DNA of 64,000 bases, taken from the IMG/VR virus record IMGVR_UViG_3300002542_000292. One strand, given 5' to 3'. Under the pieces are notes generated by a model that saw only the letters and a program-made list of their open reading frames with translations, was not told the origin of the DNA and ran no database searches. How positions within the stretch are numbered: the stretch's first letter is position 1; each line of letters starts with the position of its first letter. The DNA is from a virus (Duplodnaviria; Heunggongvirae; Uroviricota; Caudoviricetes). The position numbers and the translations under genes are program-made. Positions 18,063 to 58,395 of the stretch are shown in pieces.

Positions 18063-18104
18063 GGTACAATTACACTAGAAGAATGTGTAAGGAGTGTCGT
18101 GCGT

Positions 18105-28495: not shown

Positions 28496-30557
28496 TGAGA
28501 TTACACAAAGAAGACCAGATGGTTTTTTCCAATTGGAAAAAGATAAAGAGGCTATTGCAGAATACAAAAAGTTTATAAATGACAAGAAAATGAAATGGAA
28601 TAGTATTGCGGAGCGTGTATCATATTTAATTCAAAATAAGTATTATGAGGATTTTCTACAACATTATGATCTTATGGACGTAATACACATTTTTGAACTG
28701 GCACATAGTTATAACTTTGAATTTCAATCCTTCATGGCAATAAGTAAATTTTACGGGGATTATGCACTCAAATCGCAGGACGGCAAATTGTATCTAGAAG
28801 ACTATCCCGATAGGGTAGCAACTTGTGCATTGCATCTCGCACAAGGGGATGTACAAAAGGCTAAAATTTATGTAGACACTATGATGAAACAGTTTGTACA
28901 ACCCGCTACACCTACCTTCTTCAATGCAGGAAGATATCACAGAGGGGAACTTGTTTCTTGCTTCCTCATTGAAATGGATGATAATATCAATTCTATTTCT
29001 TATTATCTTGGTGTATGTATGCAACTGTCCAAAATTGGTGGCGGTGTTGCAGTAAACTTGTCAAAAATACGCGGACGCGGTGAACCTGTAAAAGAAAATG
29101 ATGGTACTGCCAAAGGTATATTGCCTATCATGCGGATAATGGAAGACATTTTTTCTTACGTTGACCAAGGTGGCCAGAGAAAAGGTTCAGGCGCTGCTTA
29201 CTACAACATATTTGGTTGGGATGTTCAGGAATTTTTAGACTGTAAAAAAATTAATGTTGATGAAAAAATACGGATTCCCACCTTGTCTATCGGACTAATC
29301 GTACCAAATAAATTTTACGAATTAGCTGAAAAGAACCAACCCCTATACGTGTTCGGTCCATATTCTGTTTACAAAGAATATGGTGTACACCTTGATGATA
29401 TGGATATGGATGAGATGTATGATAAACTCATTGCTAATCCCAACGTTCGCAAAAAAGTTATAATGACTGCAAGAGAAATGTTGATCAAAATTGCAATTAC
29501 GCAACTTGAATCTGGTTATCCATATATTATGAATAAAACAAACGCCAATGTTCATCATGCCTTGAAGGACATAGGTCCAGTAAGAATGTCTAATCTTTGC
29601 ACGGAAATTTTCCAATTAAGTGAACCGTCCATTATTACCGATGAAGGAGAACCAAATTACGTAGGCAGGGACATCAGCTGCAATTTAGCGTCGCTAAACA
29701 TAGTAAATGTCATAGAAAGCAAAAAGATTAAACAATCTGTATACCATGGCATGGATATGTTGACTGATGTAAGTGACATGTCTGATATCAAGAACGCTGC
29801 CAGTATCGCTAGGGCAAACAGAGAACTCCATTCTGTAGGACTTGGCGTTATGAATTTGGCAGGAATGTTTGTCAAGTATAAAATACCGTATGAAAGTGAA
29901 GAAGCGAAAGATTTTGCACGCACGTTTTTCATGATGGTCAATTTCTATTCTTTAGAAAGAAGTATGCAAATTGCCAAGGAACGAAATATGGTATTTGCTG
30001 GATTTGAAAAATCGGAATATGCAAAAGGCACATATTTTGACATGTATTTAGACAATGCATATTACCCAACTAAAGAAAAAATCAAAGAACTGTTTAGCGG
30101 AATTTACGTTCCAACACCGGAAGATTGGAAGAAATTAAAAGAACAAGTACAAGCATATGGTCTGTATCATGCTTATAGATTAGCAATCGCACCTACTCAA
30201 AGCATTTCGTATATCCAAAATTCTACAGCTAGTGTAATGCCTGTAGTGGATGTTATTGAATCCAGAACTTATGACAAGTCCACCACCTATTACCCTATGC
30301 CGTATCTGACACCGGAAAATATGTTTTATTACAAGTCTGCATACAATATGGACCAATTCAAGGTAATTGATTTGATTGCAGAGATACAGAAACATGTAGA
30401 CCAGGGAATTTCCACTGTACTCCATGTAAAAAGCGACATCGCTACTAACCAGCTTGCACGCTATTATATTTATGCAGCAAAAAAAGGACTCAAATCACTA
30501 TATTATACTAGAACACGTAATTCGAATCATGAGGAATGTTTGACTTGTGCAGTATAA
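28473..30557 (+). CDS. nrdE: Ribonucleotide reductase class Ib alpha subunit
   Basis: N-terminus aligns with Bacillus NrdE (LNNEI..DKDKEA); C-terminal ...CLTCAV tail; 694 aa. Confidence 0.85.
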   Translation: MRHILLNNEITQRRPDGFFQLEKDKEAIAEYKKFINDKKMKWNSIAERVSYLIQNKYYEDFLQHYDLMDVIHIFELAHSYNFEFQSFMAISKFYGDYALKSQDGKLYLEDYPDRVATCALHLAQGDVQKAKIYVDTMMKQFVQPATPTFFNAGRYHRGELVSCFLIEMDDNINSISYYLGVCMQLSKIGGGVAVNLSKIRGRGEPVKENDGTAKGILPIMRIMEDIFSYVDQGGQRKGSGAAYYNIFGWDVQEFLDCKKINVDEKIRIPTLSIGLIVPNKFYELAEKNQPLYVFGPYSVYKEYGVHLDDMDMDEMYDKLIANPNVRKKVIMTAREMLIKIAITQLESGYPYIMNKTNANVHHALKDIGPVRMSNLCTEIFQLSEPSIITDEGEPNYVGRDISCNLASLNIVNVIESKKIKQSVYHGMDMLTDVSDMSDIKNAASIARANRELHSVGLGVMNLAGMFVKYKIPYESEEAKDFARTFFMMVNFYSLERSMQIAKERNMVFAGFEKSEYAKGTYFDMYLDNAYYPTKEKIKELFSGIYVPTPEDWKKLKEQVQAYGLYHAYRLAIAPTQSISYIQNSTASVMPVVDVIESRTYDKSTTYYPMPYLTPENMFYYKSAYNMDQFKVIDLIAEIQKHVDQGISTVLHVKSDIATNQLARYYIYAAKKGLKSLYYTRTRNSNHEECLTCAV

Positions 30558-30628
30558 ATTGATGACGGGTTTAGATGGAAATATGCAAACCCGTTTTAAA
30601 GTCTCATTTGATACATGGGGGAATGCCG

Positions 30629-31600
30629 ATGCTGAAAGCTGTAAATTGGAACAAGCTGGAGGATGATTACAGTTTAACTTTTTGGAATCAGAATGTGATG
30701 CAAATTTGGACAGATAAAGAGATACCTCTTGCTAATGACCAAATGGTATGGATGAAGTTATCGAAGGAAGAACAAGAAACCTACATGAAGGTACTTGGTG
30801 GATTGACGTTGTTAGATACCATGCAAGGTGATGACGGCATGCCCAATATTGGGAAGCATGTCGAAGGACTGCAAAGAAAAGCAGTCTTGAGTGTAATGGG
30901 ATTTATGGAACACATGCATGCAAAATCCTATAGTAGTATATTTACGACACTAGCCAGCAATGAACAAATTGACTCTCTGTTCGCATGGATACACAAACAT
31001 CTTACGTTGCAGGAAAAATCATCGATCATTTTAGATTGTTACACAAATATCAAATCTAAGAAGGATTTATATGTGGCAATGGCAGCTTCTGTAGCTTTGG
31101 AAAGTTTTCTTTTCTACAGTGGGTTTTTCTATCCGCTATATCTCGCTGGTCAAGGAAAAATGACAGCCAGTGGGGAAATTATTGATTTGATCCTACGTGA
31201 TGAAAGCATCCACGGTTTGTATGTTGGAATGCTTGCACAGGAAATTTTCTCTGAACTATCTCCCAATGAACAAGACGAAGTTCAAGAAAAAGTGTATAAT
31301 TTGTTCAGAATACTTTATCAACTGGAAATTAAATACACTACAGAATTGTACAAGAATGTGGGTTTGGTAGATGAAGTGACGAATTTTGTGATATATAACG
31401 GACAGAAAGCCCTTATGAATTTGGGGGTGAATTACACTGTGGTGTTCCCTAACGAAGTGCAAGTGAATCCAATTGTCCTCAACGGAATAAATACGCAGAC
31501 GAAACACCACGATTTCTTCTCTAAGAAAGGTAATGGGTATGTAAAAGCCCTTAATGTACATCCGCTCACAGACGAAGACTTTGTGTTTCCCAACCTTTGA
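30629..31600 (+). CDS. nrdF: Ribonucleotide reductase class Ib beta subunit
   Basis: Near-collinear with B. subtilis NrdF as recalled (WNKLEDDY, LTLLDT, SGEIIDLILRDESIHG, VLNGINTQTKHHDFFSKKGNGY). Confidence 0.85.
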   Translation: MLKAVNWNKLEDDYSLTFWNQNVMQIWTDKEIPLANDQMVWMKLSKEEQETYMKVLGGLTLLDTMQGDDGMPNIGKHVEGLQRKAVLSVMGFMEHMHAKSYSSIFTTLASNEQIDSLFAWIHKHLTLQEKSSIILDCYTNIKSKKDLYVAMAASVALESFLFYSGFFYPLYLAGQGKMTASGEIIDLILRDESIHGLYVGMLAQEIFSELSPNEQDEVQEKVYNLFRILYQLEIKYTTELYKNVGLVDEVTNFVIYNGQKALMNLGVNYTVVFPNEVQVNPIVLNGINTQTKHHDFFSKKGNGYVKALNVHPLTDEDFVFPNL

Positions 31601-33690: not shown

Positions 33691-35469
33691 TCATATAGAC
33701 AGCTTCTCTTTTTTATATTCGTCGACGATTTGTACCAAAGTTTCTTGATCCATGAATCGATGTTCGATAAGGTATACAGCAATGCGTTCCACGAGTTCGA
33801 AGTTGTCATGTATGAGGGATTTGGTTTCTTCATACATTTTGTTTCGAATCTTCGCTACACTTTCCTGCACGCGTTCGTCATCTTCCCCGACGTTTTCTGC
33901 AAACAGATTCTTAGCGTCTTCTGCCATGCCGTACTTCGTCACATAGGCAAACAAGATGCGATTAATTTGCCGCAGATCGTCTGCAGCACCCGTTGTGTAG
34001 TCTCCATCGAGCATCTTTTCTTCGACTATTCTGCCACCGAGCAGCATCTTTACCCGATTCTCGATGTGACTTTTGCGCCACAGAACACTATCCCCATCTA
34101 TTGGTGCTACGTGACCAAGTGCCTTGTTATACGACTTTACGGTAATATATGCTACAGACTTGGCACCTTCCGGATGGAGGAGACATCTTACCGTGGCATG
34201 GCCGGCTTCATGGTACGCAATGATGCGAAGTTCGTCTTCCGACGGTTTGTAGTCGGTCTCTATGCCGACTGTGCTCCGTATGATTGCTTCCCTCAGACAT
34301 TCGGCGTCCACAATATCTTTCTTGTATCGATGTGCCAGACTGCAAGCATCGTTGACTATCTGTCTGATGTCTGCCGCACACTTGCCGTTTGTCCGTACAG
34401 CAAGAAAGTTTATGAAGTCTTCTTCCATGACTTTGGGATCGAGGACATCTTTCCTACGGTCGAGATACATGCGGAAAATGGCTTTTCTGTCTTTGAAATC
34501 GGGCTGCGGTACGTTTATCGTCTTGTCAAACCTTCCTGCACGTACGAGTGCCGAATCCAGCTTGTCCGCCATGTTGGTAGCTGCTATGAACAAAATGTGG
34601 TCATCTTTGTCAAATCCGTCCATGGCAGTAAGAAGGGTGTTGAGCGTTTGGTTGGTTTCCACTACCGTCCGCTTTTCTCTGGCAACGCCGATGGCATCAA
34701 TTTCGTCAATGAAGAGTATTGCCCTACCGTGTATTTCCGATTGTTTCTTTACATCGTTCAACACCTTTTCCAACCTGCGGCTTCCGCTGCCGACGAATTT
34801 GTTTTCTATGCGGGAAGCAGAAATGTGGAAGAACGGTGTGCCGCTTTCTCCGGCGATGGCACGTGCACACAGAGTCTTACCATTGCCCGGAGGTCCTGTC
34901 AAGAGGAGTCCTTTGGGTATGTGTACACCGTATTTTTTGTAGGACTGTGGGTTCCTTAACATATCTACATATTCTTTCAGTTCTTCCTTTAACCGTTCAT
35001 ATCCCGCTATATCATCGAAAGAGGTGTCCACATCGGTAGACTTACTGACGTAAATGTCTTCCGAAACCATCGATACCATATATCGGAGAAATACCAAGAT
35101 GAGTATCAAGACAATGGCACTGAAAAGTCCGGAAACAATAGATTTCCCAATGTTCATGGGGTTGGTCTTGAAAGATACTTCCACCCCATGTTCGGCAAGC
35201 AGATCGAGAATCGTCGGGTTGAAGGACAAATAGAGGCTCGGGTACCTCACGGCATAGTATTCGTCGCCTATTTTGTATCTGAGCGTAGCCTCGCTTTCGT
35301 AGTTATGTACATATTCTATCTTTTCTACGTCTTCCGACTGCAGAATATTCATAAATTCCGTGAGGGATTGTGATTTGTACATCTTGTCGAGTTGCCATGA
35401 TTTGATAAACATCATTCCGATGACTGTGATAACGAGTATCACAGCACCTATCAGAAGTTTCTTTTTCAT
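33691..35469 (-). CDS. FtsH-like AAA+ zinc metalloprotease
   Basis: N-terminal TM, Walker A GPPGNGKT, Walker B ILFIDEID, then HEAGHA zinc-binding motif. Confidence 0.8.
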   Translation of the reverse strand: MKKKLLIGAVILVITVIGMMFIKSWQLDKMYKSQSLTEFMNILQSEDVEKIEYVHNYESEATLRYKIGDEYYAVRYPSLYLSFNPTILDLLAEHGVEVSFKTNPMNIGKSIVSGLFSAIVLILILVFLRYMVSMVSEDIYVSKSTDVDTSFDDIAGYERLKEELKEYVDMLRNPQSYKKYGVHIPKGLLLTGPPGNGKTLCARAIAGESGTPFFHISASRIENKFVGSGSRRLEKVLNDVKKQSEIHGRAILFIDEIDAIGVAREKRTVVETNQTLNTLLTAMDGFDKDDHILFIAATNMADKLDSALVRAGRFDKTINVPQPDFKDRKAIFRMYLDRRKDVLDPKVMEEDFINFLAVRTNGKCAADIRQIVNDACSLAHRYKKDIVDAECLREAIIRSTVGIETDYKPSEDELRIIAYHEAGHATVRCLLHPEGAKSVAYITVKSYNKALGHVAPIDGDSVLWRKSHIENRVKMLLGGRIVEEKMLDGDYTTGAADDLRQINRILFAYVTKYGMAEDAKNLFAENVGEDDERVQESVAKIRNKMYEETKSLIHDNFELVERIAVYLIEHRFMDQETLVQIVDEYKKEKLSI

Positions 35470-35602: not shown

Positions 35603-36223
35603 GTGGTGATACATATGTCCAAATTGAACGAACACAAAAAGCTATACAAATTCCTCAACGAAGCTCGCAAACGTTGCAAAACTATGGCCAATGCATACGT
35701 GGAAAACTTTGTACGTCTACAGCATGCACATGCCGAAAAAGAACGTCTTATCAATTTGATGATAGAAGAACAACAAAGGCGCAATACGTTCTTCAGCAAA
35801 GTCAAGAACATAATCGGAAAAGCTGACGACAATACGCCGTTGGAACAGTACAGAACAATGGCGGAATCGTGCGATGCAACGATCGAAGAATTGACCAAGG
35901 CGAATTATGAATATGGTAAGCAGGTACATGACGACATTGCGACCATGGATGCCGTAACGGGTAGACTCATGGAAAAACACGATCTTCTGCAGAAGCAAGT
36001 GGAACAATATATGCATGTAAAGACAGATACCTGGGTGAAGGAAATGCATCTGAACCAACATTTCCCCAGGTATTCTGAAACGATGCGAAAGTGCGAAGCT
36101 GTACTCATGTTCCTCAAAGAGTACATCATCAAACGGATGGACATCGACGATGCCAAATCTTTACGTTCGTCTGCGTCCAATGCGCCCATGACGGTCAGAC
36201 GACGTCACCACCTTGGAGTATAA
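35603..36223 (+). CDS. Hypothetical coiled-coil protein (206 aa)
   Basis: ORF only; 3' end overlaps the convergent J-domain gene by ~60 nt. Confidence 0.4.
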   Translation: MVIHMSKLNEHKKLYKFLNEARKRCKTMANAYVENFVRLQHAHAEKERLINLMIEEQQRRNTFFSKVKNIIGKADDNTPLEQYRTMAESCDATIEELTKANYEYGKQVHDDIATMDAVTGRLMEKHDLLQKQVEQYMHVKTDTWVKEMHLNQHFPRYSETMRKCEAVLMFLKEYIIKRMDIDDAKSLRSSASNAPMTVRRRHHLGV

Positions 36224-37102
36224 CATCCCCACACCAATCCCGACGAGATATAGAATGCGTATCAAAGCAGCTAGGAAAAGTGCTGATGCCAGCATCTCCC
36301 TCAGCGTATACGTGTAAACGGCGTCCAACATCGACGTTCCGACCATCGCAAAGATCCACCCAAATGCGAATATATTGATGCGTTTGCGCGCCTTCCTAGG
36401 GTATATGCTGAACAACCAGAAAAGTGCACAGTGGATGGTTTCATATATGCCGGCTATCAGATACGAAATGAATCTTACTTTCATTCCGTACATTTGCTTC
36501 AAAGTAAGAATATATACCTTCGGATAGAAGTCGGGACTTGGTATTCCTTCGATATACGGAGAAGAAAACACGCCAAATTTCCGCAACACGTCTTGAAGAT
36601 TGGATGACTTATTTTCGTCCGTCCGCTTGTCTTGTGCCTTTTGTTCCGACTTCTTGTGCCGTTTGGTGCGTTTTGCCTGCTTGTCTTGCCGTTCATGATG
36701 CGTATGTTGTTTTTGCTGCCGATGGGCATTCTGATTTTGCGCATGTTGTTCTTGTTGTTGGTTGGCGCGCTGATATTGATCCTGTTGTTCCCATTGGCGA
36801 TATGCATTATGGTACTGGGTTTGTTGCCAGTTAGATCTTGCGTTTCTTTGGGGAGTTTCTTGTCCCCCTGTACCCGAATGGTTGTTTCCATCTTCGTAGT
36901 TCGGTTGGGAAGCATTCTTTCTCCTATGAATATCCTCAATCATGGCGAATGCGGCGTTGATACGCGCCATTTTTTCATTGGCATCCGCGTCCTTACATAC
37001 ATCCGGATGATACTTCATGGCCAATTTCCTATATATTCTTTTTATTTCTTCAAAATCTGTATCCGGACTTACTTGTAGGATTTCATACGGATTCATGGTC
37101 AT
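36161..37102 (-). CDS. J-domain protein with a Q/H-rich linker and a C-terminal multi-TM domain (DjlA-like architecture)
   Basis: MTMNPYEILQVSPDTDFEEIKRIYRKLAMKYHPDV is a canonical J-domain; C-terminal hydrophobic helices. Confidence 0.75.
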   Translation of the reverse strand: MTMNPYEILQVSPDTDFEEIKRIYRKLAMKYHPDVCKDADANEKMARINAAFAMIEDIHRRKNASQPNYEDGNNHSGTGGQETPQRNARSNWQQTQYHNAYRQWEQQDQYQRANQQQEQHAQNQNAHRQQKQHTHHERQDKQAKRTKRHKKSEQKAQDKRTDENKSSNLQDVLRKFGVFSSPYIEGIPSPDFYPKVYILTLKQMYGMKVRFISYLIAGIYETIHCALFWLFSIYPRKARKRINIFAFGWIFAMVGTSMLDAVYTYTLREMLASALFLAALIRILYLVGIGVGMLYSKVVTSSDRHGRIGRRRT

Positions 37103-39333: not shown

Positions 39334-41781
39334 TTATTCTTCGTCGTCTTCGGAATAAATGGTGGACACGGACACCACTTTGGAATTCGCAGACAAGTTG
39401 AGGAGTTTCACGCCTTGTGCGTACCGGCTGTATTCCACGATTCCTTCGATGGGTTGCCGGTTGATTTCGCCGGTATCGGTGACCATGACGATCTCGTCAC
39501 CTTCCCCAACGACCTTGAGTCCGACGAGCGCACCCTTCGCATTGCGCGTATGCGTTGTCCGGATACCGCATCCTCCGTGCCGTTGCACCCTGTATTCTGC
39601 GAGATCTACGAGTTTTCCGTACCCGTCCGCCGTGATGACCACGATCTTGTTTTGCTGTTTGTCTGAAAGGATGTCTGCATCCACCACGCAGTCGCCTTTG
39701 TCCAAGCAGATGCCAAGGACGCCGAACGAATCGCGGGGCATTTCATCCAAACTGCTTTCTCTGAATCTGATGGCATTGCCTTCCTTGGTGCAGATAAGGA
39801 TTTCGTCACCCGGCTTCACGCCAATAACCTTCACAATGCGGTCGTTCGTTCGAACGTTCATTGCAAGAAGACCAGCACGCGTAATGTTGTCGAAATCGGA
39901 AATGCGGGTCTTTTTGACATAACCCCTTTCCGTGATGAACAGAACGTGCGTGGACTCGCCGGACAGTGGCACGATGGATTGCACGTTTCCTTTGAGTTCC
40001 TTGCCGAGCAGACTGCCGACATGGATGCCACGAGCCACCTTGGATTTTTCCGGAATATCGTACACGTTGACCTTGTGAACGATGCCGGAATCCGTGAACA
40101 TCAGCACCGAATCCCTTGTCGACGCACTGAACACCTGCGCTACGAAATCGTCATCTTGAAGCTTCGTCATCACCCGCGCACGGTTGCCGCGACGCTGGCG
40201 TACAATGCTGTTCTCCGGTGCTCTCTTCATGTATCCGCGATTGGTGACGGAGACGATGACCCTCTCGTCCGGAATGGTTTCAAGCACTTCTTCCAAGGAA
40301 GACTTCGCTTCTCTCGTAGTAATTTCCGTGCGCCGATCGTCGCCGTATTTTTCGCCAAGTTCCGCAATTTCCGCTTTCAGCACTTGCAAGATGTTCTTGC
40401 GGGACGACAGGATTTCCATGTACTTCCGCTTTTGTTCCTGCTTTTCTGCCATTTCGTCACGAAGTTTGGTAGCTTCCAAGTTCGTCAACCCTGCAATGCG
40501 CATGTTGACGATTGCCGCCGATTGGATGTCAGAAATGCTGTATTTTGCCTTCAATGCAAACTTGGCTTCTTCTGCATCTTTAGAACTGCGGACGATCTTG
40601 ATAACGTCGTCGATGTTGTTTTGTGCTACAAGCAACCCTTCCAAAATGTGAATGCGTTCTTCGACCTTTTTCAGATCGTATTCGGTGCGTCTGCGGATGA
40701 TTTCTGCCTGATGATCGATATAGGCTTGTACGAGCTGCTTGAGGTTCATCACCTGGGGCTTCCCGTTCTGCAACACCAAGTTTTTGACGGCAAACGTGGT
40801 GCGCAGGGCCGTTTGACGCATGAGTCTTTCACGGATGACGTCGACGTGAGCATCCCTCTTCAATTCGATGACGATTCGGATGCCATCTCGGTCGGATTCG
40901 TCGCGCAGATCTGCAATCCCTTCGACTTTCTTTTCTTTGACGAGTTCTGCAATCTTGGCGATGAGGTTGGCCTTGTTGACCATGTACGGCAGTTCCGTAA
41001 CTACGAGGGCGGATTTCCCACCTTTGTATTCTTCGAATTCGATCTTGGATTCGACCGAAACTGTACCCGTCCCCGTAGTATAGATGGACGGCAGAACGTT
41101 GCCGTTGGTCACGATGCCACCTGTAGGGAAGTCCGGACCTTTGACGTATTCGAGGAGGTCCGACACTTCATACTGCTCGTCCATGTCGATCGCTTTCGTG
41201 ATGGCGGCGCAGATTTCCCGCAGATTGTGCGGAGGCATGTTGGTCGCCATACCTACAGCAATACCCTGCACGCCGTTGGCCAGAATGTTCGGAAACTTGG
41301 CGGGAAGAACGGAGGGTTCCACTTCTTCATTGTCGTAGTTCGGAACCATGTCCACCGTTTCCTTGCCGATGTCACGAAGCATTTCCACGGCAAGCGGCGT
41401 GAGTCTGGCTTCCGTGTACCGCATGGCGGCTGCCGAATCGCCGTCGATGGAACCGAAGTTGCCGTGTCCATCGACAAGCGGATAGCGCATGGAGAAGTCC
41501 TGTGCCATGCGCACCAAAGTACCGTACACGGCGGCGTCGCCGTGCGGGTGGTATTTACCGATAATTTCACCGACGATACGTGCGGACTTCTTGTAAGGGC
41601 TGTTCGGACCGATACCCAAATGATGCATGGCATACAGCACGCGCCTATGTACGGGCTTAAGACCGTCGCGTACGTCCGGAAGCGCACGGCTCGTGATGAC
41701 GCTCATTGCGTAATCGAGAAAGGAAGATTCCACTTCCTTGGATATCTCAAGGTCTATGATCCTTTCCAGGTTTTCAGACAT
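39334..41781 (-). CDS. gyrA: DNA gyrase/topoisomerase II subunit A
   Basis: FLDYAMSVI...[15 protein letters not shown]...[10 protein letters not shown]; AGGAGG RBS before the internal Met at 41781 (the ORF track begins 7 codons upstream). Confidence 0.85.
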
Positions 41782-41925
41782 TGAACGATCCTCCTCAGGC
41801 ATTTTGTGATAACTTAATTATACCATTTGCAAATTTCCACTGTCAACATATTCGACGTCCATAATTGTTGATTCCGGAGAACGTTACATGTTACAATAAA
41901 ATAAGGTAGAGGGAGGTCGTTCACA

Positions 41926-42324
41926 TTGGCAAACATAGAAAAGATCAAAACCGTAGAACCAAGTTTCGACAGTTACAAGAAAATGATAAAACAAAATTCA
42001 CAGACGAAAAAGACGGGATTCGTGGCTTTTATTATACTGATAATTCTGTCCGTCGGAATGTCCATGTATATGCTGTTCAACAAGGAGTATGCAGTCACCG
42101 CAATCATACAGGGCAAAGAAGTGCTGTATGAACATTCCCCTGGCATATTTTCGGAAGGAACGAAAAAAACCGATAAATATATGTGGAAAGTCAAGTGGCA
42201 GGGTCAGGTTTTACATCCTTTGGGGAATATGGTACAAGTGGATTCGGAAATGTTCGACGCATATGAGGTCGGCGATCATGTGGTAATCACGTTCAAAGGG
42301 AATAGGGTGGTAGACGTAAAATAG
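41926..42324 (+). CDS. Membrane protein, hypothetical (132 aa)
   Basis: GGAGG RBS; one TM helix. Confidence 0.5.
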   Translation: MANIEKIKTVEPSFDSYKKMIKQNSQTKKTGFVAFIILIILSVGMSMYMLFNKEYAVTAIIQGKEVLYEHSPGIFSEGTKKTDKYMWKVKWQGQVLHPLGNMVQVDSEMFDAYEVGDHVVITFKGNRVVDVK

Positions 42325-42381
42325 AGGGGAGATGACATTTCATCTCCCCCTCACTTTTGCCCATTCGTCTACGATCGCAAC

Positions 42382-43347
42382 TTATACAGCCACATTGGCC
42401 TGTATTTTTGGATGGTATTGGTAGTGTTTGATTTTGATGTGTTCCGGTCCCATGTCGAACAAGGATGGGGCGTCTTCTTCTATGACGAGTTCGGGGAATG
42501 GATACGGTACGCGTTCGAGTTGCGTTTTTACCTGTTCCACGTGGTTCGAGTAGATGTGGGCATCGTTCACGTTATGCACGAGTTCTCCGACTTCGAGTCC
42601 GACTTCTCTTGCCACAAGGTGCGTAAGAAGCGCATAGGATGCAATGTTGAAAGGAACGCCGAGGAACATATCGCCACTGCGCTGTTCGAGGAGGCAGGAA
42701 AGTTTGCCGTCTGCAACGAAGAATTGGAAGGACTTGTGACACGGAGGAAGTGCCATAAAGTCGTTTTCTCCGGGATGCCACGCATTTACGATCAGACGGC
42801 GTGAATAAGGATTGGTCTTGAGTTCTTCCACGACTTCGGCGAATTGATCTACAGTCTCGACTTGCCCCGTCTCTGGATTGACATACTTCCAATTTCTCCA
42901 TTGTACGCCGTATATACGGCCAAGATCTCCCCAACGCGCAGCAAAGTTATCGTCTTCCAGGATTTTCTGGACAAACTTTGCCATTTCCTGTTCATATACG
43001 GCGCGGAACTTCTCGTCCTTCATGGCGCGGATGCCAAAATCAGTCATATCCGGCCCCTTGTACTCCTTGGACTGCACGTACCGTTTGAATGCCCATTCGT
43101 TCCAAATGTGGTTGTTGTGTTCGAGGAGGTATCTGATGTTGTTCATTCCTTTTATGAACCACAAAAGTTCCGACTTGATAAGATCGAACGGCATTTTCTT
43201 CGTGGTGAGCAGGGGGAAGCCGTCAGACAGATTGAACCTCATCTGGATGCCGAGGACGGCATATGTTCCGACGCCTGTCCTGTCCTGCCTGTAGGAACCG
43301 TTCTCCAAGATGTAGGCACAAGCATCCAAGTATTGATATTCGGACAT
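42382..43347 (-). CDS. thyA: Thymidylate synthase
   Basis: ThyA-type motifs recognised in the translation ([31 protein letters not shown]..., [20 protein letters not shown]); GGAGGAAA RBS before the internal Met (the ORF-track start is 62 codons upstream). Confidence 0.85.
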
Positions 43348-43531
43348 ACATTTCCTCCTCAGATGTTGTTCCATAATGAAAGGATACCCTAAATGTATGC
43401 GACAAGTCAATATACATATTACGATGGATCTATGCATGGGATTCCCCGCATAATGTATTGACTTGCTGCGAGACATGTATGTAAAATGAAACATAATAGC
43501 AGATTTCATATTCTCCATAGGAGGAAAATAC

Positions 43532-43903
43532 ATGCAAAATCAGCCCGCAATTTTCTATTCATTTCCGTCCTGCAACTCGTCCAGAAGGGTCAAGAATTGG
43601 TTGGTTGTGAACCGGGTAGAACATGTGGAGCGGCGCGTGCTTCGCGACACTATTGATCCGGATGAAATCATGCGTATGCTGAAGCTTTCTAAGGAAGGAT
43701 TCGACGAAATCATATCTTCGCGTATCGGAAGCGTAGGGGAAAGCATCGTGGATTTCGAAGATCTGCCTACAAGCAAGTTCATCCAATTCGTGTGCGAAAA
43801 TCCCATCGTGCTTCGCAAACCGATACTCATTCTGGGAGACCGGCTTATCGTCGGTTGGAACAGAGATGTATACAGAGAAATCGCTACAAAGCAACTTGTT
43901 TGA
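43532..43903 (+). CDS. Spx/ArsC-family (thioredoxin-fold) protein with CxxS in place of CxxC
   Basis: Near-collinear with B. subtilis Spx as recalled ([46 protein letters not shown]); active site CNSS. Confidence 0.7.
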
Positions 43904-43919
43904 CCTCATGAAAATGCGT

Positions 43920-43955
43920 GAGCCCAGCACATTGTGCTGGGCTCTCAATTTTTGG
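43920..43955. terminator. Bidirectional terminator GAGCCCAGCAC-ATT-GTGCTGGGCTC plus TCAATTTTTGG
   Basis: 11-bp perfect stem. Confidence 0.8.
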
Positions 43956-43959
43956 CACA

Positions 43960-44226
43960 TCAACGATCTTCGACAATCAGTCGAATCATCGTGCGTTCTT
44001 CGTTGTCGAGTTTGACGTCGCCGAATGCGGGAATGGCGATGAGGTTTTTCCCGCTGGTTGCCGTGATGCCACGTGCAATGGCCACCGCCTTGATTGCTTG
44101 GTTGACCGCTCCTGCACCGATAGCATGCAATTCCACACGTTGTGCGGTCTTGAGTTCCCCCGCAATGGCTCCTGCTACAGACGTTGGGCTGGATTTCGCG
44201 GAAACTTTCAGAACTGTAACTGCCAC
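43960..44226 (-). CDS. spoVS: SpoVS (stage V sporulation protein S) homolog
   Basis: VLKVSAKSSPTSVAGAIAGELKTA...AIGAGAVNQAIKAVAIARG...IPAF matches B. subtilis SpoVS closely over 86 aa as recalled; GGGAGGAG RBS, GTG start. Confidence 0.8.
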   Translation of the reverse strand: MAVTVLKVSAKSSPTSVAGAIAGELKTAQRVELHAIGAGAVNQAIKAVAIARGITATSGKNLIAIPAFGDVKLDNEERTMIRLIVEDR

Positions 44227-44306
44227 TGTTTTCTCCTCCCACTGTAAAAGATGTGGAATCTACATGAAATTATATCATGGAGAACGACGTCCGTCAATAA
44301 TATATC

Positions 44307-46265
<1,959 letters not shown>

Positions 46266-46306
46266 TTATTATATCATGAATGGGGAAGGACCGTCAATGC
46301 AATGGG

Positions 46307-47011: not shown

Positions 47012-48115
47012 ATGCTACAGATATTGAAAACTTCCATCAAAAATCTGCTGGGTCATGCCTTCAATGCATCGGCAAACAAAGGCCTGTTTGCCGATGCAGT
47101 ATCTCCAATGAAGAAAAGCTTGTATGACGAAATAAAGATAGTGTCAGAATACCTGCACGATCTCATGCTGAAAACGACGAAGTTCGTGAAGGTCAATTCC
47201 AACCTGCTTCCCATAGCAGGAATAAGCTACACGGACATGCAACTTTTGTCCCGCATACCGAACAACCCTATTCTCAGCATGTCTTCCAACGTCCGTTTCG
47301 GCATGGACAGGTACGGTCAGATCAAAGTGTTGGACTTTCGTCCTGGGGGACTCATGCAGTATGTAAACGTCGCAACGGAAAACAACAACTACTGTAACAA
47401 GAAATACATACAGTCTGCATGTATATCCCCGGAAATGTTGCTTCAAAGCTGGATGGTGTACGTTATCAACGGATACCGGAAATACTTGCCGTTGCACAAC
47501 TGCATCCTCATCACAGAAGATAGGAAGGAACACAAATTCCTCACCTACGTATGTAGGAAAGTAGGACTCGACATCGTCGGAACAAATCTCGATGACATCC
47601 ATTCGAAGGGCGATTCCGTGTACTTCAAGAAACACAAAATCGACGTCATCATCAGGACGAAATCGTTCCAAGACATCGTCAAAAATCCGAACTTGTATCA
47701 TGATCTGTTCGATGCCATGTATGAAAAGACATTGATCATCATTGACCCAATCGAAGAATTCATAGCACAGTCGAGGGCCCTGCAAGCCATCCTTTGGTAT
47801 TTGTACGAAACCCAACAATTCTACACCGACGAAGAAATGGAATTCATCGGCACATACATGCTCCCAACGTACATCGTACCGCGCATGGACGGTCCTGCGT
47901 GGATTATGCAGTATTTTGGCGACGAAGAAGCCAAATTTGCCAGCTTCGACGATGTCCCCATGTCGGTGATGGAAGAGGAAGGAATCATCTACCAGTATAG
48001 GGGAGACATGGAATTTGCCTACAACATAAATTCGTTCCTCATCGGCAATAGGTTTGCAGGATGTACCTATGAAAACAAAGAAGGAAAGCAGGAATACACG
48101 TTCGTCAAGAAGTGA
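47012..48115 (+). CDS. Hypothetical protein, possibly ATP-grasp-like
   Basis: 367-aa ORF; weak resemblance only. Confidence 0.35.
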   Translation: MLQILKTSIKNLLGHAFNASANKGLFADAVSPMKKSLYDEIKIVSEYLHDLMLKTTKFVKVNSNLLPIAGISYTDMQLLSRIPNNPILSMSSNVRFGMDRYGQIKVLDFRPGGLMQYVNVATENNNYCNKKYIQSACISPEMLLQSWMVYVINGYRKYLPLHNCILITEDRKEHKFLTYVCRKVGLDIVGTNLDDIHSKGDSVYFKKHKIDVIIRTKSFQDIVKNPNLYHDLFDAMYEKTLIIIDPIEEFIAQSRALQAILWYLYETQQFYTDEEMEFIGTYMLPTYIVPRMDGPAWIMQYFGDEEAKFASFDDVPMSVMEEEGIIYQYRGDMEFAYNINSFLIGNRFAGCTYENKEGKQEYTFVKK

Positions 48116-53737: not shown

Positions 53738-55729
53738 ATGAAAAACATACTTGCATACAGCATGCTTGGGTGCCTGTTGGTACTCGAAGTACTCGGCATA
53801 GCATCAAACATACCACAAATGTTCATTCAGCCGAAACAGTTTGCAGAGAATATGCAATGGATGGATCCCCAATGGATCGGTCTGATTCTGTTGGCCGTTT
53901 TGGCGATCATGAGGAAAAAATACTCCGAATACCTGTACGGCTGGTTTGACAAAATATTCGTAATTGCTGTATGCCTTGGAGTGCTTGCCTACGGTTCGCA
54001 ACTCATCCATTTGGGAATCGTGCATTGGCTGGATGGACAAGATTTGGGACAAGGCGGACTCGGTGGACTGGTTGCTGCTATTGCATACAGGGTATCTGTG
54101 GTACTTGCCTTGGTCGTCATAGTAGTTATTATCCAGTCCAGGTTCGGAATGCTCCTCATGCAGCCAAAGGACCAAATCGAATTTGGTGCTTCCAAAAACA
54201 AAGGGAGATTCAAAGAAACCAAGTTCAGGAAGGAATTTGACATCGATCATGTACCAAAAAAGAATCCGGGGGATATTCTTGTATGTTGGGACCGGCAGAC
54301 GGGCAAGGGTGTCATAATTCCGGAAAAGGACAGAAGCCTGCACCTCTTCTGTGCCGGTCCTACGGGTTCCGGCAAATCTTCTACTCTGGTCCTGCCGATG
54401 ATCTACCAAGATTTGAAGGTACCAAATTCCGGCGTCGGACTCATAGAACCCAAGGGCGACATCGCAGAGACTGCCTATAAGATGGCTATTATGTTGGGAC
54501 GGAAGGATGCTGTATATTTCGACCCAACCAACAAAGATACTACTGTATATTTCAACCCGCTCGACCCAATGAACGGTACCGACTATGACGTCATCAACCT
54601 CATGACTACAGTGTATGACGGCATGGCGGGTGGTTCTAACACGGACCCATTCTTCCACAAGAACAGCATGATGGTTCTCCGTAAATCCTTGGACCTGTTG
54701 CTTCGTCTTAAGCGTTTGGAAGGTTCGGTCCTGACGCTCCGTGAACTCGGAAGGTTCCTGACGGGCAAGACGGTCATGATCGATTACTGCAAAAGGCTCG
54801 CTTCATACCGGAGACCGGAAGACGAAGCACTCTTGGAATGGTTCTATTCGGAACTCTTGGCTGACACCAAAAATGCGCAGAACAACCAAGGATACTACGT
54901 GGGACTGCGTCAGGAAATTGAACTTTTGGGTGAACTTGATTGGCTCAACGGAGATCCCAAGACCGGACGGTCCCAACTCAACTTCGACGAATTGTTGGAA
55001 AACGGCGGAGCATTCTTCGCCAGCACGGGACTCGGCGCGCTGGGTACGATGGGTAACTATCTCGGTCAATTTCTTATCATGGCATTCCAAAACGCCGTGT
55101 TCCGCAGACCGGGAAATGAAAATACGAGAAAACCATTCTACATGTACATCGACGAATTTTCACTGTATGCCAACGACAATTTCGAACGATGGTTGGCACT
55201 CGCACGCTCCTATCGTTGCCCGGCACACCTGTTTACACAAGGTACGGCTCAGCTCGACAAGGTAAGCGAAGAATTCAAACGTTCTGCAATCAACAACTGC
55301 CGACACAAGATTATCTTTGCACCAGAAGAAGAATCGGAAGCCAAGTATTGGTCGGAATATTTCGGAGAAACTTACAGGGAAAAAGTCAGCAAAAACGTGA
55401 GCAAGGGTACTTCCAAGAGATGGAATTGGCTCAATCTCATGGATACTCCGGACAACATCAACGATTCGGAAGGACAAAACGTCAGCGAAGAATTGGTCAA
55501 AAACTTCACGCCCACCGACATTATGAACCTGCCATTCAAACACGTCATCTACAAAACGGTCAAAGATGGCACCAACCAAATGGCAAGATACGGCGTGACA
55601 GATTGGATTCCAAATCGAGTCAACGACGTTCTCAAAAAGATAAACATAAAGGATCACAAGCCGAATATTCACATGCAACGCAGTACGGAACCCAATCTCT
55701 CGGGAGAAGAAGATCTCGAATTCGCATGA
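53738..55729 (+). CDS. Membrane-anchored P-loop DNA translocase, VirD4/TraG-like type IV coupling protein (FtsK-like not excluded)
   Basis: About 4 N-terminal TM helices, Walker A CAGPTGSGKSS, Walker B FYMYIDEF. Confidence 0.6.
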   Translation: MKNILAYSMLGCLLVLEVLGIASNIPQMFIQPKQFAENMQWMDPQWIGLILLAVLAIMRKKYSEYLYGWFDKIFVIAVCLGVLAYGSQLIHLGIVHWLDGQDLGQGGLGGLVAAIAYRVSVVLALVVIVVIIQSRFGMLLMQPKDQIEFGASKNKGRFKETKFRKEFDIDHVPKKNPGDILVCWDRQTGKGVIIPEKDRSLHLFCAGPTGSGKSSTLVLPMIYQDLKVPNSGVGLIEPKGDIAETAYKMAIMLGRKDAVYFDPTNKDTTVYFNPLDPMNGTDYDVINLMTTVYDGMAGGSNTDPFFHKNSMMVLRKSLDLLLRLKRLEGSVLTLRELGRFLTGKTVMIDYCKRLASYRRPEDEALLEWFYSELLADTKNAQNNQGYYVGLRQEIELLGELDWLNGDPKTGRSQLNFDELLENGGAFFASTGLGALGTMGNYLGQFLIMAFQNAVFRRPGNENTRKPFYMYIDEFSLYANDNFERWLALARSYRCPAHLFTQGTAQLDKVSEEFKRSAINNCRHKIIFAPEEESEAKYWSEYFGETYREKVSKNVSKGTSKRWNWLNLMDTPDNINDSEGQNVSEELVKNFTPTDIMNLPFKHVIYKTVKDGTNQMARYGVTDWIPNRVNDVLKKINIKDHKPNIHMQRSTEPNLSGEEDLEFA

Positions 55730-55746
55730 ACTGCACGTGAAATATG

Positions 55747-55776
55747 ACAAGGGACGGCTTTTCAGCCGTCCCTTGT
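55747..55776. terminator. Hairpin ACAAGGGACGGCT-TTTC-AGCCGTCCCTTGT
   Basis: 13-bp stem between convergent genes. Confidence 0.7.
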
Positions 55777-55789
55777 CGTATATATGAAT

Positions 55790-56440
55790 TCAGTTTGAAA
55801 GCATGCCCTCCAATGCCAACACTATCACGTAGGAAACGAAAATGGATGGAAGGAGGGGGAAACTCGTTTTCTTCTGTGCTAGGGCGATCACGCTCTGTAT
55901 GACTGCTGCAACTGCAAAGACGACAAGTACGGCGAGAATCATCCAACCTTTGACAAAGGCGATGGCTGTAAACATGAATATGTCACCGCCACCGATACTG
56001 TGATCCCACATCTTTTTCCCCACGATGTTGAAAATGACAAAGGTAAAGAATGTTGCAACAGGGGGAACAATGTAGTGAAATACGTACGACCACATACTCG
56101 ACATATCGTACATGAAAAAATATGCCGTCGCCATTGAAAAGCCAGTGACGTTCATCAAAATCATCAGAGGGTACGGAACTACATTGGCATACAAATCCGT
56201 AGCCACGGCAATGCACAAAATCCACAGCAAAACGAGGTTCATGATGGTTTCGTACGTCGTTGTTGCTCCAAGTTCCATAAAATACCGGCAGAAGTAGGTG
56301 AATATGCATGCCAATGACGTTCCCAAAAAAGCATGTACGATCCTGCTCTTTTTCTGCTTGCCGAACTTCGCATCTATGTATTTGGACATCCATGCAAACA
56401 TGATGGGAATGCCCACGATAGGTAAAATGTACACATACAT
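55790..56440 (-). CDS. A24-family prepilin peptidase-like polytopic membrane aspartyl protease
   Basis: Polytopic membrane protein with VATDLYANVVP and IGGGDIFMF, resembling the two conserved Asp motifs of TadV/PilD peptidases. Confidence 0.5.
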   Translation of the reverse strand: MYVYILPIVGIPIMFAWMSKYIDAKFGKQKKSRIVHAFLGTSLACIFTYFCRYFMELGATTTYETIMNLVLLWILCIAVATDLYANVVPYPLMILMNVTGFSMATAYFFMYDMSSMWSYVFHYIVPPVATFFTFVIFNIVGKKMWDHSIGGGDIFMFTAIAFVKGWMILAVLVVFAVAAVIQSVIALAQKKTSFPLLPSIFVSYVIVLALEGMLSN

Positions 56441-56585
56441 ACGGCATCACACCCAACATAGTTATTACTTTTATTTAACCATGTTCCGTATGTATTTGTC
56501 AATATGCTTTGAACAAAGCACGAGGCAGTACATATTTGTACTGCCTCAAGCTGCCTCAAACTGCTTCAAATTGTTGCAAATTAAA

Positions 56586-56663
56586 TCATTTTTCTTGTCT
56601 TCGTTTTTCCAAAGCAACCGTAAGCAGAACGAACACACCCAACGCAAAAAGGAACAGATACAT
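56586..56663 (-). CDS. Mini-ORF (25 aa, MYLFLFALGVFVLLTVALEKRRQEK) with a perfect conserved RBS motif
   Basis: GTGTAAGGAGTGTGCACC-ATG read on the minus strand; terminator hairpin (GAGGCAGTACA...TGTACTGCCTC at 56526-56551) follows. Confidence 0.35.
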   Translation of the reverse strand: MYLFLFALGVFVLLTVALEKRRQEK

Positions 56664-56734
56664 GGTGCACACTCCTTACACAAAATGTTTATAAAAATTA
56701 TAACGTGTAAGGAATTATGCACACAATAATTTAA

Positions 56735-56917
56735 TCACCGAAGCATTCTCACGATGTCATTGTAGAACATCAGTGCGAATCTGCCCACCACAATGAGAAG
56801 GAATATCACGAATATCCATAGGACGATTCTTAGCCATAGTGGTTTCTTGTCATGGTAATGATAATGCTTGTGATAGTGTTGAGCATTGCGATAACGTCTG
56901 CGCGCCATGTGTTCCAC
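56735..56917 (-). CDS. Small His-rich membrane protein (60 aa)
   Basis: N-terminal HYHKHYHYH and one TM helix; same operon as 56928-57914. Confidence 0.45.
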   Translation of the reverse strand: MEHMARRRYRNAQHYHKHYHYHDKKPLWLRIVLWIFVIFLLIVVGRFALMFYNDIVRMLR

Positions 56918-56927
56918 CTCAATCTCT

Positions 56928-57914
56928 TCAAATGATGAGCAAACCTTCTTTATTGACTTGCATGTCGGACCTCACGGCCCGAAGCAGATCGCGTCTTCCG
57001 TCGATCACTTCTTCATGACCGAGAAAATGAATCGGGTCAAACTTCCTGGATTCGAATACAGAAAGTTCAAACAAATTGTGTTGCTGTTTCCCGTTGGTGA
57101 GGTTGCAATACCAAATGTCCGCATAGGGACCGTATTTCTTGATGTCTTCCATGGTGGCGACTATCACGCGCATACGGCTTCCTGCTTCTTTCAAGTACAA
57201 GTTGACCGTGTTTATGATGTTCTGAACGCGCACTTTGTTGAGGAGCGTTACGAACATAATGATTTGTTGGTCAGCCTTGTACCCGTGCAGATGGAAATAT
57301 GTCAGATAGTTCCGAATCTTGGCGTCGATCATTTGCAAGTTCTGTTTGCCAGAATCGAGTTCCAGATTGAATGAAGATTCTCCGCCATCGTGAGTAAAAT
57401 ACCCAAGTGCATCTGGGATTATCTTTGGAGAGCCATCGTCATACGGATACAGACTTTCACATTCGATGGGACCTCTCCAAAGAAGGAGACCGGAATTTGG
57501 CACGTTGTCGTGTTCGATGAAAGACATCATGACCTCCGTAGCTGCACTGTTGTGAGCTGCGAATACCAGCATGCCGGCCGGTGTGCGATTGAGATTTTTC
57601 GGAACCGAAGGATCCACACTGTGCAGAATTTCGATTCCTGCTTTTTTGATGAAGTAGTAATAATAGTTGTTGAACTGCACGCATCCTATATAATCAAGTT
57701 CCTTGAGTGCAGAAACGTACCATCTCACGTTCCTCTCGTTTTTGTAGCACAAAAGTCTCTTCATATCAGATACACGCAGGAAGTCATATCTGAGCAATAC
57801 TTTGAGGAACGGTTCGTAATGGGGATTATACAGGTTGTTCGGGTCTTTTGGGAACCTTGGGTTCCATTTATTCTTTTCAATAAGCTTTTTTATCTTTGCC
57901 CTGGAATCTGTCAT
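56928..57914 (-). CDS. Hypothetical protein (328 aa); possible DNA-binding or replication-relaxation-type function
   Basis: ORF only; the function guess rests on its placement in the plasmid-like module. Confidence 0.35.
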   Translation of the reverse strand: MTDSRAKIKKLIEKNKWNPRFPKDPNNLYNPHYEPFLKVLLRYDFLRVSDMKRLLCYKNERNVRWYVSALKELDYIGCVQFNNYYYYFIKKAGIEILHSVDPSVPKNLNRTPAGMLVFAAHNSAATEVMMSFIEHDNVPNSGLLLWRGPIECESLYPYDDGSPKIIPDALGYFTHDGGESSFNLELDSGKQNLQMIDAKIRNYLTYFHLHGYKADQQIIMFVTLLNKVRVQNIINTVNLYLKEAGSRMRVIVATMEDIKKYGPYADIWYCNLTNGKQQHNLFELSVFESRKFDPIHFLGHEEVIDGRRDLLRAVRSDMQVNKEGLLII

Positions 57915-58087
57915 TCCTTCACCTTCTTGGACTTCGTAGTTCTTTTCATCAAGGCACGAATAAACTATTTGGATACCTCAATTGTATCATGTGTGTCGAA
58001 GTTTGTCAATACTGTATACTTGCAATAAATGGCAGGACATGTTACAATAAAGGTAAGGAATATGTTTAGTGTAAGGAGTGTGGGAAT

Positions 58088-58354
58088 GTGCAAACGGATG
58101 TGTTGCTTCAAACCTTGGGGATTGTGAACTTGGTAACATTGCTTTTGTACATCGCGGATTATTTGGGGGCGATGAATAGGGGGTTTAGGTTCCCCAACGT
58201 GATCATTTGGCTCCCCACCATTGCATTCGGTTCATTCGGGGCATTTGTAGGAGTGTATACAAGCGGTCACAAATTGGAACGTCCGGAATTCAGATTTGGG
58301 ATTCCGTGCCTTGTGGTCGCACATTTGTTTGCCCTAGCAATCCTCATGATGTAA
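58088..58354 (+). CDS. Small membrane protein (88 aa)
   Basis: GTG 10 nt after GTGTAAGGAGTG; 2-3 TM helices. Confidence 0.5.
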   Translation: MQTDVLLQTLGIVNLVTLLLYIADYLGAMNRGFRFPNVIIWLPTIAFGSFGAFVGVYTSGHKLERPEFRFGIPCLVVAHLFALAILMM

Positions 58355-58356
58355 AC

Positions 58357-58395
58357 AAAAAGATGGAGAATGCATCACGCATTCTCCATCTTTTT
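58357..58395. terminator. Bidirectional terminator AAAAAGATGGAGAATGC-ATCAC-GCATTCTCCATCTTTTT
   Basis: 17-bp perfect stem; overlaps the stop of the primase-polymerase gene. Confidence 0.8.

Follow-up and report, generated by a model that had tools for sequence, protein, structure and literature searches.

The question raised by this locus is what a Spx-like regulator without the disulfide switch of Spx does on a giant mobile element, where its gene lies beside a spoVS homologue between gyrB and gyrA. The locus is found in a stretch of 64,000 nucleotides (IMG/VR record IMGVR_UViG_3300002542_000292), the whole of which is referred to here as the window and which is part of a 301,935-bp contig. 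The initial annotation of this DNA had placed a Spx-like protein and a SpoVS homologue, together with thyA, between gyrB and gyrA, and this gene map of the interval is confirmed by the open reading frame (ORF) listing, the Pfam matches and direct reading of the sequence. The explanation that is favoured here, tentatively and at somewhat less than an even chance, is that the two regulators are independently transcribed genes, the first of which would encode a constitutive, redox-blind anti-alpha factor and the second a near-canonical SpoVS, as judged from their sequences and by analogy with Bacillus subtilis Spx. The positions of these two genes are as follows.

43532..43903, plus strand: Spx-like gene (Spx/MgsR family), 123 aa, with an AGGAGGA ribosome-binding site (RBS)
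43960..44226, minus strand: spoVS, 88 aa, with a GTG start 7 nt past GGGAGGAG; Pfam SpoVS

The Spx-like protein is a member of the Pfam family ArsC (4.6e-14), with a weak match to Glutaredoxin (E = 0.006), and its best NCBIfam match is 'transcriptional regulator Spx' (9.7e-25). Its residues 8-118 correspond to residues 4-114 of Spx without any gap over 111 residues (phmmer against PDB entries 1Z3E, 3GFK and 7F75; E = 5e-19), in agreement with the near-collinearity with Bacillus Spx that was noted initially. When the AlphaFold (AF2) model of the protein, with a predicted local distance difference test score (pLDDT) of 82, is compared with the PDB by Foldseek, the top eight matches are all Spx structures (template modelling (TM) score of 0.8, root-mean-square deviation of 2.0 Å). 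The matches to ArsC and YffB are far weaker, both in sequence (E of 1e-6, compared with 5e-19 for Spx) and in structure (TM scores of 0.5-0.7, compared with 0.8). When 1.84 billion cluster representatives were searched with a profile, only the cluster of the protein itself reaches E < 1e-30, and the runner-up scores 100 bits as compared with 226 bits; the family therefore forms an isolated clade. Among cellular proteins, those closest to it are MgsR-like (39-40% identity) and Spx (34-36% identity), and at 34-40% identity the sequence-based assignment to either Spx or MgsR is beyond resolution. In the favoured explanation, the gene encodes a lineage-specific derivative of the Spx/MgsR regulators that bind RNA polymerase, such binding being predicted for the present protein. 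The family is new within the known Spx family, and it is carried by a poorly classified giant element.

The residues 14-17 of the protein read C-N-S-S, where Spx has C10-T-S-C13, as described in the initial annotation. At least six assemblies, spread over three archives (ENA, Logan and JGI), contain contigs that encode exactly this 123-aa protein, by which a sequencing error as the origin of the CxxS motif is rejected. A search of 5.8 billion proteins yielded five relatives (98, 85, 65, 49 and 46% identity), and the motif is C-N-[SH]-S in all six family members. The contigs of these relatives are 35-239 kb long and have the order gyrB, spoVS, spx-like, thyA, (the dihydrofolate reductase gene, DHFR), membrane ORF, gyrA, which is retained in relatives at 85%, 65% and 50% identity. 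The ratio of nonsynonymous to synonymous substitution rates (dN/dS) between the window and the 85% relative is 0.04 for the Spx-like gene and 0.14 for spoVS (0.10-0.14 overall), as compared with 0.045 for thyA and 0.057 for gyrB, with synonymous sites being saturated in all comparisons deeper than that with the 85% relative. As judged from these ratios, both regulator genes are under strong purifying selection. Pseudogenisation of the homologues in relatives is also rejected, given the low dN/dS and the presence of CxxS in all relatives.

The published contacts of the transcription-activation complex of Spx (PMC8501982) served as the reference for mapping the residues of the Spx-like protein. 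The contacts L46, G52, D54 and E72 with the RNA polymerase alpha subunit's C-terminal domain (alpha-CTD) are identical and invariant across the family, and R47K, M74L, V71F and L79F are conservative changes; the equivalents of G52 and R60, which the initial annotation had singled out as Spx residues for alpha-CTD contact, are both conserved. Of the DNA contacts, T11 is replaced by N, K62 by G or a variable residue and R92 by an invariant K, such that the RPI motif (R92-P93-I94) reads K-P-I in each of the six members, with P and I being kept and the base-reading R92 being replaced. The region of helix alpha4 is variable and glycine-containing, without K62, in all six members, and the segment 66-72, which corresponds to this helix of oxidised Spx, is the sole low-confidence stretch of the AlphaFold model. 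The position equivalent to Spx residue 119 is the last one of the protein; the six members have lengths of 123-124 aa, and each of them is without the last ~12 residues of Spx. The C-terminus of Spx is a ClpXP degron. The use of a C-terminal 'DD' variant for stabilising Spx (PMC2801614) fits with this. The helix alpha7 residues R119, Q122, L123 and L129, which in Spx touch region 4 of sigma-A (PMC8501982), are also absent from the family.

These differences can be compared with the published behaviour of Spx, where the C10-C13 disulfide bridge is required for activation and is dispensable for repression, the reduced C10S variant has an identical alpha-CTD interface, helix alpha4 unravels upon reduction, and the R60E and K62E variants lose the activation of trxB and keep the repression of the ComA-dependent srfA (PMC2801614). 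It is also reported in a 2025 preprint that some Spx functions persist without the redox switch. As far as its residues can tell, the Spx-like protein resembles a 'reduced, alpha4-less, tail-less' Spx that has become fixed in nature, and in this sequence comparison the missing helix alpha7 and degron, together with the altered DNA-reading residues, are as telling as the CxxS motif.

With the alpha-CTD residues being conserved and the switch being lost, a redox-blind anti-alpha role is plausible. The protein would bind the host alpha-CTD constitutively, whatever the redox state, and it would escape turnover by YjbH/ClpXP and hence be stable. On this prediction, which is the most economical one, it would behave in the way of reduced or C10S Spx and be an anti-alpha factor, blocking host promoters that depend on activators and UP elements (competence, motility and rRNA-type targets), and the thiol-stress regulon would not be switched on. 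The genes of the element would be largely indifferent to this alpha-CTD sequestration, because nearly all of them have near-consensus, TG-extended sigma-A promoters. From the redox-blind transcriptional hijacker that was proposed initially, the redox-blind regulator of the host polymerase is retained as plausible, and the phage framing is not, as no virion gene is found in about 105 kb and megaplasmid-type genes are present. The promoter and terminator sites of the interval, as found in a consensus scan, are as follows.

41817..41846, minus strand: gyrA sigma-A-type promoter, TTGACA-18-TATAAT, TG-extended, 12/12
42325..42350, both directions: terminator-like hairpin that separates the membrane ORF from thyA
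43458..43487, plus strand: sigma-A-type promoter-like site of the Spx-like gene, TTGACT-18-TAAAAT, 10/12
43920..43944, both directions: bidirectional intrinsic-terminator-like hairpin with an 11 bp stem (8 GC pairs), common to the Spx-like gene and spoVS
44269..44297, minus strand: spoVS sigma-A-type promoter, TTGACG-17-TATAAT, TG-extended, 11/12
46268..46297, minus strand: gyrB sigma-A-type promoter, TTGACG-18-TATAAT, 11/12

The promoter-like site of thyA is weaker (9/12 in the same scan). The Spx-like gene is convergent with spoVS and divergent from thyA, with its own promoter and without forming an operon. The promoter-like site of each gene, together with the hairpin that is shared by the Spx-like gene and spoVS, argues against an operon-like cassette, and the deliberate control cassette envisaged in the initial annotation is not supported by this layout, in which the two convergent genes are interleaved with thyA (and with DHFR in relatives). 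About 35 intergenic sites of the window share one pattern, TTGAC[AGT], a mostly 18-nt spacer often ending in TG, and TAnAAT, usually with A/T-rich DNA upstream, and this uniform pattern covers almost every gene as well as the tRNA clusters. Judging by their sequences, such near-consensus, TG-extended promoters should depend little on alpha-CTD contacts, and the uniformity of these promoters suggests the idea of resource capture. A tail-less, switch-less Spx would then be a protease-resistant alpha-CTD decoy, by which the activator- and UP-element-dependent transcription of the host falls while the promoters of the element stay active; this wider proposal is considered to be rather unlikely. 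It might be reinforced by the MecA-like ClpC adaptor, the FtsH and DnaJ proteins and the off-schedule SpoVS of the element.

The CxxS motif by itself is less special than the initial annotation had implied. In the set made up of the window protein, its relatives and the 150 top-scoring cluster representatives, CxxC is found in 65 sequences; outside the Spx-like family, 28 CxxS and 14 SxxS motifs are found in the 150 representatives, including chromosomal Spx proteins, and many others are without one of the cysteines. These motifs were read from a MAFFT alignment, and the query profile was itself built from CxxS sequences. In this alignment, CxxS is common in divergent Spx paralogues, chromosomal ones included, and the distinguishing trait of the Spx-like family is the combined loss of the switch, of K62 and R92, and of helix alpha7. 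In the IMG/VR sample only one prophage Spx, which is unrelated, was found, and the representative species genomes of GTDB have chromosomal MgsR-like genes only, the element being absent from them. The Spx of 'Streptococcus phage MissG2' was rejected as host DNA within a phage record. Most 'phage' matches of Spx and gyrB were also set aside; these are unannotated records of up to 386 kb with housekeeping genes (gyrB, ftsH, spx) as best matches, and from these matches they are taken to be contaminating host contigs.

The identity of SpoVS is supported by a Pfam match of 8.3e-33 (112 bits, with a cut-off of 24; residues 5-86 of 88) and by the match to the Thermus SpoVS structure (PDB entry 2EH1; 7e-21), and the strong RBS that had been noted ahead of its GTG start is present. 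The protein is 65-70% identical to cellular SpoVS of Firmicutes and is, by this measure, near-canonical rather than a diverged mimic. For this family an Alba-like nucleic-acid-binding fold is predicted, and its function is described by B. subtilis genetics only, which link it to stage V and sigma-K-dependent genes and, negatively, to sigma-D-dependent genes (PMC2732212). SpoVS homologues are annotated in phages of Lysinibacillus, Bacillus and Streptomyces, belong to a PHROG classed as 'moron / host takeover', and are also found in soil viromes, in Priestia plasmids and in a 628-kb Rossellomorea plasmid. The view of this SpoVS as a host mimic is overstated or not supported, with the protein being so close to cellular ones and phage and plasmid copies having been described already; the new points are limited to its neighbour gene and its consensus sigma-A-type promoter. 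Transcribed from this vegetative-type promoter, the element copy would give extra SpoVS outside the developmental window, or, alternatively, it would serve the element itself as an Alba-fold nucleic-acid-binding protein. The Rossellomorea plasmid (sp. AcN35-11, CP128836.1, 628 kb, circular; region 89-114 kb) has paralogues of many housekeeping and cell-cycle genes, namely ftsZ, ftsL, ftsEX, dnaI, dnaD, tmk, addB, thyA, phoH, csrA and spoVS, as well as a T4CP (the type IV coupling protein gene); its cargo is analogous in its 'second-chromosome-like' style, and it is not a close relative.

The other genes of the interval are the following.

39334..41802, minus strand: gyrA, 822 aa; Pfam DNA_topoisoIV (6e-161) and DNA_gyraseA_C
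41926..42324, plus strand: small single-pass membrane ORF, 132 aa, TTG start
42382..43347, minus strand: thyA, 321 aa; Pfam Thymidylat_synt (5e-107)
44307..46253, minus strand: gyrB, 648 aa; Pfam HATPase_c, DNA_gyraseB, Toprim and DNA_gyraseB_C

The membrane ORF (41926-42324) has no Pfam match and is found at the equivalent position in all relatives. The ORF call of thyA spans 42382-43533, and its true start is the ATG at 43347, with a GAGGAGG RBS ahead of it; the 321-aa product is also called on the source contigs. Rfam gave tRNAs only, and no intron or riboswitch was found in the interval. That the regulators were inserted between gyrB and gyrA, as initially worded, is an interpretation; the arrangement is ancestral to the whole lineage, and this position is taken here as a lineage trait only. 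In the most distant relatives, the DHFR gene lies between thyA and the membrane ORF (8336-8797 in loci L007-L009); it is absent from the window. A glutathionylspermidine-synthase-like ATP-grasp protein is encoded at 47012-48115 on the plus strand (Pfam GSP_synth on the source contig) and adjoins gyrB in all relatives.

The interpretation of the locus also depends on what the element is. About 105 kb were surveyed, comprising the 64-kb window and ~40 kb of flanks and orthologous flanks, with the contig walk reaching ~10 kb past each window end and, in relatives, going one step beyond this; some 200 kb of the contig lie outside this survey. The element is at least 302 kb long and is taken to be extrachromosomal, with a Bacillales-type host. 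The plasmid-type module at 53738-59640 and the partition gene that follows it are listed here.

53738-55729, plus strand: VirD4/TraG-type coupling protein (T4CP) of a type IV secretion system, plasmid-type module
55790-56440, minus strand: prepilin-peptidase-like membrane protein, plasmid-type module
56928-57914, minus strand: Replic_Relax, with a second copy in the downstream flank
58375-59640, minus strand: primase-like protein, at the end of the plasmid-type module
61201-62253, plus strand: actin-like partition ATPase (ALP_N / MreB-like_C), under a longer, spurious antisense ORF (61204-62397)

The best matches of the T4CP (33-35% identity) are on 100-700 kb megaplasmids of Paenibacillus, Geobacillus, Brevibacillus, Clostridium and B. 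thuringiensis, and a 359-kb plasmid of Paenibacillus thiaminolyticus, which has pilus genes, shows the same succession of T4CP, small reverse ORF and Replic_Relax. The distant homologues of the actin-like ATPase belong to SPO1-like Bacillus phages and to plasmids. The upstream flank (~10 kb before the window start) encodes a T2SSE ATPase, an A24 prepilin peptidase, an N-methyl pilin, a 737-aa VWA protein and an ankyrin protein, and the downstream flanks encode HU, the second Replic_Relax, a sigma-70 region-4 protein, SNF2 and XPD-type helicases and a CCA-adding enzyme. T4CP, Replic_Relax, a partition system and pilus genes, as expected for a megaplasmid, are all found. They stand together with cargo of the huge-phage type, which consists of nrdIEF, a purA-like gene, FtsH, DnaJ-domain and ankyrin proteins, PIN-PhoH, a PcsB-like M23 peptidase and 14 tRNAs loosely arrayed at 5129-16363 (ARAGORN), besides two Rfam tRNAs (15110-15182 and 16307-16363). 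By its gene content, the element is probably megaplasmid-like, of the conjugative type. No related plasmid was found in PLSDB, where only analogous modules are present, and an exact-match scan of JGI contigs gave short flanks only.

The possibility that the element is instead a jumbo phage or a phage-plasmid is less probable, although by no means remote. In the corresponding rival explanation, which is somewhat unlikely, the Spx-like protein and SpoVS are host-takeover genes of a jumbo phage, shutting down stress and sporulation programmes during infection. The cargo of 14 tRNAs, CCA-adding enzyme, nrdIEF, gyrA/gyrB, thyA, PhoH, FtsH and DnaJ is in agreement with this, as are the gyrB-x-gyrA arrangement, TraC/TraD-like genes and class Ib ribonucleotide reductase of phage G, the actin-like proteins of SPO1-like Bacillus phages, the presence of SpoVS in cultured phages and in a 'host takeover' PHROG, and the Spx-like domain (CSSV) of a cultured Lysinibacillus phage. 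However, no capsid, portal, terminase or tail gene is found in the ~105 kb; GenBank phages give no megablast match, and two tblastn searches with concatenated proteins gave scattered single-gene matches only; the lineage is absent from the IMG/VR sample, even though 116-146 kb JGI contigs of it exist; and the T4CP/Replic_Relax module and pilus genes match megaplasmids. The gyrB is also nearer to that of cellular Bacilli (58% identity) than to that of phage G (46%), and kinship with phage G, whose gp253 is unrelated, is rejected.

Two further explanations concern the Spx-like protein itself. Instead of a transcription factor, it could be a monothiol enzyme or carrier for redox reactions, similar in type to ArsC, YffB or glutaredoxin, that serves thyA, DHFR (in relatives) and nrdIEF. 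Its single invariant cysteine in C-x-x-S, as in monothiol redoxins, the thioredoxin fold, the ArsC membership with the weak Glutaredoxin match, and the location next to thyA (and to DHFR in relatives) are compatible with an enzymatic role, and basic residues are kept at what we take to be the positions of R60 and R94 of E. coli ArsC. This explanation is nevertheless very improbable when considering the far stronger matches to Spx, the invariance of the Spx-specific alpha-CTD residues L46, G52, D54 and E72, and the divergent orientation with respect to thyA, with a separate promoter and no common operon. A higher but still low probability is given to an MgsR-like activator, in which the equivalents of R60 and R91, with new residues, would bring RNA polymerase to a different upstream site in the promoters of the element. 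At sigma-B promoters, MgsR recognises another operator even though the fold is the same, the nearest cellular relatives by identity are MgsR-like, and C10A Spx still activates a mutant trxB promoter (PMC2801614). An activator, however, is difficult to reconcile with a helix alpha4 region that is variable, glycine-rich and modelled with low confidence, with the missing helix alpha7, by which Spx contacts sigma-A region 4 in the activation complex, and with the ~35 element promoters, where no shared -45 operator motif upstream of the -35 box is seen by eye beyond A/T-richness, no formal motif search having been made.

Several observations weigh against the redox-blind anti-alpha factor as well. 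The protein scores below the curated thresholds of both NCBIfam NF002459 'Spx' (87.1 bits, with a cut-off of 123) and TIGR01617 'Spx/MgsR' (60.5 bits, with a cut-off of 75.05). Four of the published alpha-CTD contacts are altered (T53F, L76T, Q77S and Y80I), by which the binding to alpha-CTD could be weakened or retargeted, and the contacts are those of the published Spx complex. The equivalents of R60 and R91 are R or K in all six family members; together with the precedent of MgsR, a family member that reads other operators at other sigma promoters, this makes an activator of new specificity conceivable. The promoters and terminators are called by match to a consensus alone, and the proposed mechanism is derived from residue conservation and from the work on B. 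subtilis Spx.

If the mechanism of the redox-blind anti-alpha factor is true, the Spx-like protein would be a natural counterpart of the Spx mutants made 'reduced, ClpXP-resistant' in the laboratory, and selection would have fixed it on a mobile element; the anti-alpha activity of Spx would be separated from its redox-activated role, and a giant plasmid or phage would bias host transcription with a 123-aa protein. The poorly sampled lineage, with elements of at least 300 kb that combine plasmid transfer and partition genes with huge-phage cargo, also bears on the classification of such contigs. The SpoVS copy is one more case of a known pattern, and by itself it leaves the picture unchanged.

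Some other features of the element are worth recording. MecA/ClpCP degrades Spx in vitro, and the following gene is maybe relevant to Spx turnover. A MecA-like protein of 225 aa is encoded at 60269-60946 on the minus strand. Its match to Pfam MecA (2.9e-11; profile 85-214/221) is confined to the C-terminal, ClpC-binding part, and its N-terminal, substrate-binding part is unrelated to MecA; from this domain structure, the element could have its own ClpC adaptor, directed at new targets. Also encoded are an FtsH-like protease, two proteins with DnaJ domains and two with ankyrin repeats, at 33691-35469 (minus strand), 36161-37102 (minus strand), 18852-19883 (plus strand), 14460-14885 (minus strand) and 18048-18767 (plus strand), and these genes and the MecA-like gene make up a notable proteostasis and adaptor set on one element. 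The nrdI-nrdE-nrdF block (28127-31600) has 36-37% GC, as compared with ~46% in the rest of the window, which suggests a more recent acquisition from a donor of lower GC, and positions 1-2000 of the window are also low in GC (34%). Several tRNAs are unusually long (Gly-CCC 94 nt, His 86 nt and Cys 86 nt), and the CCA-adding enzyme lies ~20 kb past the window end in relatives (L028 and L029). The PIN-PhoH gene is divided into two ORFs in relative L007, and relative L012 has an extra Macro-domain gene.

When the locus is compared with known systems, a parallel in gene arrangement is found in Bacillus phage G, where the gyrase pair is also divided by a small gene on a giant Bacillus element (gyrB-gp253-gyrA) and where TraC/TraD-like genes, NrdIEF and sporulation-related genes are present; the intervening gene of phage G, however, encodes an unrelated 118-aa protein, and no other common genes were detected. 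The known SpoVS genes of phages and plasmids differ from the present one, which is convergent with a Spx-like gene and lies between gyrB and gyrA. The spoVS gene of B. subtilis is reportedly under sigma-H control, whereas the element copy has a consensus sigma-A-type promoter.

Spx genes are also carried by other mobile elements. Plasmids of Priestia megaterium and Lactiplantibacillus plantarum have SpxA or Spx-MgsR genes, but the SpxA of the Priestia plasmid is canonical, with CASC and a full tail. The cultured Lysinibacillus phage LC76P1 encodes a protein (WAX16656.1) whose Spx-like domain has CSSV and so also lacks the second cysteine; in this protein, annotated as hypothetical, the domain (28% identity) is the C-terminal part of a 268-aa fusion. 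Loss of the second cysteine with retention of G52 is also seen in chromosomal paralogues, namely WP_071318863.1 of Anaerobacillus isosaccharinicus ('transcriptional regulator Spx'), with CSSS, and a Spx/MgsR protein of Thomasclavelia / [Clostridium] innocuum, with CASG. No reported function was found for these two switch-less paralogues, which differ from the Spx-like protein in being only ~30% identical to it, full-length (130-132 aa) and chromosomal.

The comparison with MgsR (YqgZ), which is the paralogue of Spx in the sigma-B regulon, shows a slightly higher identity than with Spx (39-40%, as measured with the MgsR-like proteins from B. glycinifermentans and B. sonorensis), a similarly short length and a similar N-terminal register (G55 of MgsR and G56 here; RPI at 95-97 and KPI at 96-98), but MgsR has a functional CxxC switch and the arginine of the RPI motif. 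With B. subtilis Spx (PDB entries 1Z3E, 3GFK, 3IHQ, 6GHB and 7F75), the Spx-like protein shares the fold (TM score of 0.8) and the gapless alignment over 111 residues at 34-36% identity, and it retains the alpha-CTD contacts G52, D54, E72 and L46 as well as the equivalents of R60, R91, P93 and I94. It differs from Spx by the change of C13 into S, which makes the disulfide bridge impossible, by the loss of K62, the changes of R92 into K and of T11 into N and the glycine-rich loop in place of helix alpha4, and by the absence of helix alpha7 and of the C-terminal ClpXP degron, and its gene is carried by a giant mobile element.

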